IMG/VR virus record: IMGVR_UViG_2896607866_000003
Span: 1 to 11,346 of that record
DNA: 11,346 nucleotides
Direction: 5' to 3' (one strand)
DNA from: a virus
Lineage: Duplodnaviria; Heunggongvirae; Uroviricota; Caudoviricetes
The notes beneath the pieces are model-generated. The model did not search any database and was not told where the DNA came from. It saw only the letters and a list, made by a program, of their open reading frames with translations. Positions 10,593-11,167 of the stretch are shown one piece after another; position 1 is the stretch's first letter, and each line of letters begins with the position of its first letter. The position numbers and the translations under genes were made by a program.

Positions 10593-10657
10593 GGAATGCA
10601 CCGTGGAAATTAAAAAAATCATTAATCCCCGTTATACCGAAAGTGGCGCAGTAGACT

Positions 10658-11167
10658 GTGACGTTTTTTTTTGACGACAGGGACCAGGCAGTCCCCTACA
10701 CAGCCACCGCTGATGATGTCGCACCGACGGGTCAGCGAATCTGGCAGGAACTGCAAAGTGGCAAATGGGGTGAGATAGCCCCATTCACTGTGACACCAGA
10801 AATGCTGGAAGCGGCCAGAGAGGCCAGACGTCAGGAAATTGAAGCATGGCGCACAGAACAGGAGGCGAAGCCGTTCACGTTTGAATGGAACGGTCGTATC
10901 TGGAATGCTGGTCCCGACTCACTGGGCCGCCTGTCCCCGGTAGTCATGCTGGCAAAATCTGTCACAGCACAAACACATATGGCGTGGAGCGATGCCGATA
11001 ATCAGCAGGTGAAACTGTCGATGCCGGAACTGGAAGAACTGGCGGCAGCAATGGTGCAGGCGCAGGTCGATCGCAACGATGAGATTTATCGCCGTCAGCG
11101 TGAAATGAAAGAGGAGCTGAGCGGTCTGGATGATTTGGCTTCAATTCGGGCGTTTGACGTTGAGTAA
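10658..11167 (+). CDS. Hypothetical protein, 169 aa; possible tail-fibre chaperone or cargo gene; apparently frameshifted relative to an upstream start at 10603
   Basis: ORF from GTG 10658. A better start (GAGGAA at 10594-10599, GTG 10603) lies in another frame and ends at a TGA inside the T9 tract (10664-10672). The functional guess rests on position after stf only. Confidence 0.45.

Follow-up and report, generated by a model that had tools for sequence, protein, structure and literature searches.

An eight-to-nine T frameshift in the DUF4376 gene of an ipaH-linked Shigella prophage remnant

Described systems in which a homopolymer sets the frame

In the contingency loci of Neisseria, Haemophilus and Campylobacter, length polymorphism of a homopolymer within coding sequence toggles the reading frame. 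The DNA considered here, an 11,346-nt stretch of a Caudoviricetes record (hereafter the window), shares this layout at a run of nine Ts, T9, near its 3′ end, in that the tract lies in coding sequence and sets the frame, and its length is polymorphic among isolates. The A/T tracts of contingency loci are, however, typically longer than the window's run, which further differs in its recent origin and in its host gene, a non-surface gene in a prophage that is defunct; reversible switching at high frequency is not in evidence.

A second class of described loci comprises the “pseudo pseudogenes”, in which frameshifts that lengthen an A/T run from eight to nine are rescued by slippage (Baranov et al. 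2005, PMC1088944). The window gene resembles them by its eight-to-nine change in a coding A/T run, by the existence in related strains of a homologue with a single ORF and by the possibility of restoration at the mRNA level. It also has two features of the class, namely a run of nine Ts at the junction of overlapping frames and a single-ORF T8 homologue that is otherwise identical. In contrast to the described examples, restoration requires the loss of one U or the gain of two, and the element hosting the gene is a dead prophage. Neither the DUF4376 gene nor any Shigella entry appears in the supplementary tables of that study (PMC1088944).

In S. flexneri itself, the genes mxiE and spa33 offer a comparison within the same organism and with the same RNA polymerase, since in both a coding run of about nine Ts or As joins two overlapping frames. 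The difference is that in mxiE the two-ORF state is functional and conserved and slippage is required, whereas the window gene descends from a single-ORF T8 state, which is also the commonest one. At the level of translation, the programmed +1 site of prfB (RF2) consists of CUU_UGA_C with an upstream Shine-Dalgarno-like stimulator. In the window gene, an in-frame UGA-C similarly comes right after a shifty P-site codon, and a +1 slip there re-pairs perfectly and leads to the full-length protein, but the site has no upstream SD-like stimulator, no conservation and no autoregulatory logic.

Intact comparisons are provided by homologues of the gene such as L57 of phiP27 (NP_543109), tail4 of Rac-SA53 and WP_041031379 of E. 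coli SE11. These proteins of 187-193 aa share an N-terminal motif with the window gene, and their genes likewise lie right after a phage_tail_N gene, with a GAGGA Shine-Dalgarno sequence over the upstream stop codon. They differ in having no homopolymer at the site, where V-L-F is encoded in place of V-F-F, and only the window copy has the extra T.

The frameshifted gene, its product and its start

The sequence-only reading had proposed that a well-initiated ORF of 23 codons and a 169-aa ORF, separated by the T9 tract, are the two halves of one gene. The letters of the window bear this out (Table 1). Translation from GTG 10603 proceeds for 23 codons to a TGA that begins within the tract at 10664-10672, and the listed start of the 169-aa ORF, GTG 10658, is offset by 55 nt and hence lies in the +1 frame. 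The two frames overlap over 10658-10674, with T9 at the junction. As had been claimed, GTG 10658 has no good ribosome binding site: no SD-like motif (GGAGG, AGGAG, GAGG or AGGA) is present in 10641-10664, 24 nt that include the 17 nt before this codon. The intact allele reads GAC GTT TTT TTT GAC (D-V-F-F-D), and the extra T brings TGA in frame after codon 23. In-silico removal of one T fuses the two ORFs into a protein of exactly 187 aa from GTG 10603, for which about 187 aa had been announced. The good Shine-Dalgarno sequence claimed for GTG 10603 is indeed GAGGAA, overlapping the stop codon TGA (10590-10592) of the tail-fibre frame, although the spacer is 6 nt and not the 4 nt first given, which is still good spacing.

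Table 1. Coordinates of the frameshift site, of the gene parts around it and of other prophage features in the window
Feature	Position	Strand	Remarks
IS3-family elements (three); truncated DnaB-like replication gene	684-1523, 2550-3823, 7613-8326 (-); 1517-2200		rve/HTH_Tnp_1 ORFs; IS600 and IS2 types by the names given in relatives
Antirepressor genes	6106..6792; 6861..7589		P22_AR/ORF6N; Rha/ANT
Side tail-fibre gene (phage_tail_N)	9328..10592	+	PF08400, E 1.4e-70
Shine-Dalgarno sequence GAGGAA	10591-10596	+	read from the sequence; 6 nt 5′ of GTG 10603
5′ fragment of the DUF4376 gene	10603..10674	+	GTG start, 23 codons, premature TGA 10672-10674
A7 run, second, minor slippage-prone site in the DUF4376 gene	10612..10618	+	A6 in L053-L055
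T9 homopolymer (frameshift site)	10664-10672	+	T8 of the intact allele (GTT TTT TTT = V-F-F) plus one T
3′ part of the gene with the DUF4376 domain, +1 frame	10673..11167	+	inside the listed 169-aa ORF 10658..11167
Tail-fibre assembly (Tfa, Caudo_TAP) remnant, 59 aa	11167..11346	+	weak PF02413 match

T9 is the only homopolymer of at least 8 bases in the window. Composition alone predicts about one such run, and 54 of 200 shuffled sequences had two or more; the significance of T9 therefore has to come from comparative data, as the run is not improbable in itself. The tract together with a weak hairpin at 10647-10660 scores as terminator-like, but a terminator was rejected at this position, as the stem has 5 pairs and is unused in the MFE fold, and in the intact allele these Ts are part of the coding sequence. 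No Rfam family matches at the T9 site.

The 169-aa ORF matches PF14301 (DUF4376) with an E-value of 3.5e-17 and 63 bits (cut-off 25), and the 187-aa protein obtained by repair hits phrog_1141 (“tail fiber protein”) from residue 1 to residue 187 (E 1.7e-88). The window copy, whose reading frame is not intact, is a frameshifted member of the family. The gene lies directly 3′ of the phage_tail_N gene in the window as well as in all relatives fetched, and in two better-preserved relatives (L001 and L042) the order is gpJ-Lom-tail fibre-DUF4376, with an ipaH effector gene in convergent orientation next. For the Alteromonas phages V22 and A5, the DUF4376 proteins whose genes come right behind the fibre genes have been called fibre chaperones (PMC7289586, PMC10579305). 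From its position and family, and by analogy with V22 gp27 (PMC7289586), the product is probably a DUF4376/phrog_1141 tail-fibre accessory protein and a putative fibre chaperone. No solved structure is related to it by sequence (best E 0.1). The pN/pS across haplotypes is about 0.37, which shows that the gene evolved as coding sequence, a ratio by which present-day constraint is inseparable from that of the ancestral phage.

Intact homologues at 78-80% DNA identity are found in E. coli SE11, in phiP27 (L57), in Rac-SA53 (tail4) and in several ETEC/STEC prophages. From one end to the other, the repaired protein can be aligned with intact homologues (187-193 aa) whose starts correspond to GTG 10603, and its N-terminus, for which a comparison with homologues had been suggested as a check, matches them residue for residue. 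The motif M-E/Q-I-K-x-I-x-x-P-R-Y-T-E-S-G-A-I-D-C-D-V is common to the homologues and to the 23 codons of the window. A homologue that starts at the equivalent of 10658 and lacks the upstream segment would speak against a single gene; none was found among the homologues compared, in which the upstream segment is present.

The start codon itself deserves comment, as two positions compete. The frame upstream of GTG 10603 is open back to ATG 10543 (43 codons), and RefSeq/PGAP places the start of the intact close relatives at the ATG equivalent to 10543, giving 207 aa. This codon, which is internal to the tail-fibre gene, reads ATA in one of the relatives (L006). The starts of the homologues lie at the tail-fibre stop or within 4 nt of it and are preceded by gtGAGGAttgc, followed by ATG; the DNA similarity of the 78-80% relatives to the window begins at about 10604, and the NCBI proteins P0002 and P0049 begin at the position of GTG 10603. 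Judged by the homologues, the Shine-Dalgarno sequence and the ATA in L006, GTG 10603 is the better start. Hence the real start is probably GTG 10603, and the RefSeq start would be 20 codons too long.

Tract length among isolates and paralogous copies

The region is found at 95-99.5% identity in 10 E. coli genomes of EIEC type; in all six of those fetched the tract is T8 and the CDS is annotated as intact. One of them, E. coli VL46 (L001), equals the window over all 556 bases of the gene outside the tract, so that T8 versus T9 is the sole difference between the two genes. CP024470.1 (S. flexneri 3a 71-2783) matches the window without a single difference over 4658-11346, T9 included.

With eight Ts in the intact relatives, the extra T might be a homopolymer miscall in an assembly whose true state is T8, as the sequence-only reading had proposed among its three options. 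Homopolymers are where 454 and long-read data classically err, PacBio data underlie the identical record CP024470.1, and some of the T7 and A6 variants described below stem from older draft assemblies. Pilon correction of that record nevertheless drew on MiSeq reads, at a coverage of 200-500x (PMC5754485). The exact 169-aa product occurs on about 20 contigs, and the ten places shown all have T9 at the DNA level: the CP024470.1 chromosome, 8 Logan assemblies, which derive from independent read sets, and 1 ENA metagenome contig. Ten further chromosomal places were verified as T9 at the DNA level, and the index of the collection lists the 41-aa N-terminal product specific to T9 in 192 blocks, including 34 that have contigs of more than 1 Mb. 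The occurrence of T9 in one complete genome polished with Illumina reads, and in no fewer than 19 other places assembled independently, leads us to reject a sequencing error as extremely improbable; the change is real and heritable.

Comparison of tract length across isolates, another check that had been proposed, extends to the 6-7 paralogous ipaH-linked prophage remnants present per genome. With the tract left free as any 5-14 bases between its flanks, a scan found T8 in 15 of 16 copies, i.e., in all six copies of S. flexneri SFBU1023, in six of the seven copies of ECMA0423, the seventh being T9, and in three metagenome contigs. Beyond this majority of T8, the lengths T7, T8, T9 and T10 were all verified at the DNA level: T7 in CP026839.1 at two loci and in one Logan assembly, and T10 in CP037996.1. 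The T7 and T10 alleles were recovered by a homology search with the predicted T10 product. Exact look-ups of the predicted T7, T10, T11 and T12 products gave no match, because the out-of-frame peptides vary between haplotypes. A candidate T6 allele is represented at the protein level by P0047, a 40-aa product from a 4.8-Mb NCBI contig, which ends in ...DCDVF as T6 predicts. Only T8 gives an open frame; T7, T9 and T10 each give a truncated product. At the A7 run, three older S. flexneri drafts (L053-L055) have A6, which leads to the product P0054 (...EIKKSLIPVIPKVAQ); slippage at a second site or an error of the draft assemblies may lie behind this.

When 47 copies were compared over the 556 non-tract bases, 20 haplotypes were distinguished. 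T9 lies on at least five haplotype backgrounds that are 11-41 of 556 positions apart, and haplotypes 0 and 7 were each found both with T8 and with T9. A first network, in which four T9 haplotypes were connected by single-step links, had suggested a single inherited T9 lesion; this view was dropped, as T9 backgrounds 15-41 differences apart and T8 and T9 on identical haplotypes are inconsistent with it. The occurrence of T9 on at least five diverged haplotypes identifies the T run, at the level of sequence comparison, as a recurrent slippage hotspot, in which T9 arose repeatedly or was copied between haplotypes. Haplotype 7 is present at three loci per genome (L023, L025 and L027 in SFBU1023; L029, L030 and L033 in ECMA0423), which implies that copies exchange sequence by gene conversion or duplicate, and what looks like recurrent mutation could also stem from gene conversion of short tracts between paralogues.

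T9, seen in 192 blocks, is far commoner than T7 (3 contigs) and T10 (1 contig), a comparison that is biased because sampling was ascertained through the T9 product. Possible sources of the excess are clonal over-sampling, gene conversion among paralogues, a bias towards insertion at T8 and tolerance of a leaky T9 allele. The T9 alleles examined have otherwise intact ORFs, with no further inactivating lesions.

The run itself appears to be young. The distant intact homologues at 78-80% identity read GTG CTG TTT GAG or GTT TTA TTT GAA (V-L-F-E), while the Shigella/EIEC lineage reads GTT TTT TTT GAC (V-F-F-D). A single TTA-to-TTT change (Leu to Phe) from an SE11-like state would create T8. As the run is missing in the distant homologues, it is best seen as a recent, lineage-specific accident and not as a conserved feature, and retention of the tract across homologues, which would be a sign of selection for mutability, is not observed at 78-80% identity.

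Gene decay, switching and leaky expression

The gene sits in one of the 6-7 IS-riddled, ipaH-linked lambdoid prophage remnants of Shigella flexneri. Besides the elements of Table 1, the window contains NinB, two antirepressors and Tfa fragments, and no head or tail-shaft genes. In L013, the identical genome, and in the close relatives that were fetched (L001-L006 among them), the window is followed immediately by a minus-strand ipaH gene, which encodes a T3SS effector. Coverage of the window stays below 80% in every E. coli genome of the collection. Within the 59-aa ORF of the Tfa fragment, a terminator scan picked out a strong hairpin of terminator type (11283-11304) with a T run after it. 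Just 5′ of the antirepressor genes, three plus-strand Rfam matches score above the gathering score, namely c4-a1b1 (5856-5908), isrK (5869-5942) and C4 antisense RNA (5969-6053). In sequence and arrangement, these RNAs at 5856-6053 and the antirepressors look like an immI-like antirepressor control module of the P1/P7 type.

The neighbouring gene is itself damaged. The tail-fibre gene, a single protein of 422-471 aa in the relatives, has lost one 4-bp repeat unit in the window and is thereby divided between two ORFs, one of 304 aa and one of 117 aa: (GACT)2 is present at 10229-10236, against GACTGACTGACT or GACTGACTGGCT in intact copies, which appears as a 4-bp gap relative to L001 and other relatives. 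Among paralogous copies, this 4-bp lesion and T9 assort independently. In S. sonnei, P0050 and P0052 carry an in-frame internal deletion after ...WQELQ that removes most of the DUF4376 domain, another form of decay.

Of the three options raised by the sequence-only reading, a pseudogenising insertion is the best supported, with a probability that we put at roughly 0.8. The change from T8 to T9 would then be a homopolymer insertion by replication slippage, as part of ordinary gene decay in a prophage remnant. This reading is based on T8 in the intact relatives, on the frameshift in the neighbouring gene and on the prophage being a remnant. Mechanistically, slipped-strand mispairing during replication at the lineage-specific T8 run would add one T, and the resulting +1 frameshift ends the product after codon 23 and leaves the DUF4376 domain out of frame. 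The mutation would be neutral, owing to a prophage no longer able to build tails. The T9 allele is probably leaky to some degree, in that slippage of RNA polymerase or of the ribosome would remake the wild-type protein at a low level. One counterpoint to decay is that the excess of T9 and the intact downstream ORFs would also fit a tolerated or selected state.

A slipped-strand on/off switch was the remaining option, and part of it holds, as the tract is a slippage hotspot with lengths of T7-T10. Its stronger form, a selected contingency locus in which reversible T8/T9 changes switch the DUF4376 gene, is very improbable. A coding homopolymer that varies from T7 to T10 across isolates and paralogues, the presence of T8 and T9 on otherwise identical haplotypes and T9 alleles without additional inactivating lesions are what such a switch would produce. 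Against it, the run is a recent accident missing at 78-80% identity and short for an A/T contingency tract, and unrelated slippage lesions occur in the neighbouring sequence, as general decay predicts. The products of contingency loci are under fluctuating selection (surface, restriction-modification or similar), whereas here the tract lies in a tail-fibre accessory gene of an IS-disrupted remnant that has no virion genes and is unable to make virions; for the cell, it is neither a surface nor a defence gene. The same-haplotype read-set assemblies are T9 in 8 of 8 cases, weak evidence against switching, as the sample was ascertained through the T9 product. T9 shows no sign of being regulatory.

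A rival to decay is a leaky “pseudo-pseudogene”, a T9 allele that would still yield the full-length wild-type protein. Two routes would lead there: RNA polymerase may slip on U9 to give U8 or U11 transcripts, or tRNA-Phe on UUU 10669-10671 may slip +1 to UUU 10670-10672 at the poor stop UGA-C. The codon geometry is favourable, since UUU UGA C combines a shifty codon and an in-frame stop with perfect +1 re-pairing, and either route gives ...D-V-F-F-D-D..., which is the intact sequence; the restoration of the wild-type peptide by both routes speaks for this possibility. Furthermore, in many bacteria transcriptional slippage starts to show once an A/T run reaches nine (PMC1088944), S. flexneri itself uses slippage on T/A runs in mxiE and spa33, and T9 alleles are otherwise intact and much commoner than T7 and T10. 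However, the 24 nt 5′ of the slip site contain no SD-like stimulator, unlike prfB, the transcript error needed is -1 or +2, compared with +1 in mxiE, and no role is apparent for the gene in a prophage without tail genes, so that leakage would probably be inconsequential. Conservation of run length and of the two-ORF organisation, taken as the mark of purposeful use (PMC1088944), is not seen either: lengths vary from T7 to T10 and tract length is not conserved, with T8 the majority at 15 of 16 copies in the open scan. As a rival to decay, such a leaky T9 allele is unlikely. That T9 is a tolerated or even favoured, slippage-dependent state providing a reduced dose of wild-type DUF4376 protein is a still more doubtful proposition, and an improbable one; if true, it would explain the presence of T9 on many haplotypes and ipaH-linked loci, the intact ORFs and the excess over T7 and T10.

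With the T8-to-T9 change read as gene decay, the practical consequence for annotation is that the 23-codon and 169-aa ORFs are to be read as one frameshifted gene of 187 codons. Tract length, from T7 to T10, could in principle mark the ipaH-linked prophage remnants of Shigella/EIEC. For the biology of the organism, the locus adds one more eight-to-nine homopolymer frameshift, of a well-known kind, in a bacterium whose RNA polymerase slips on such runs.
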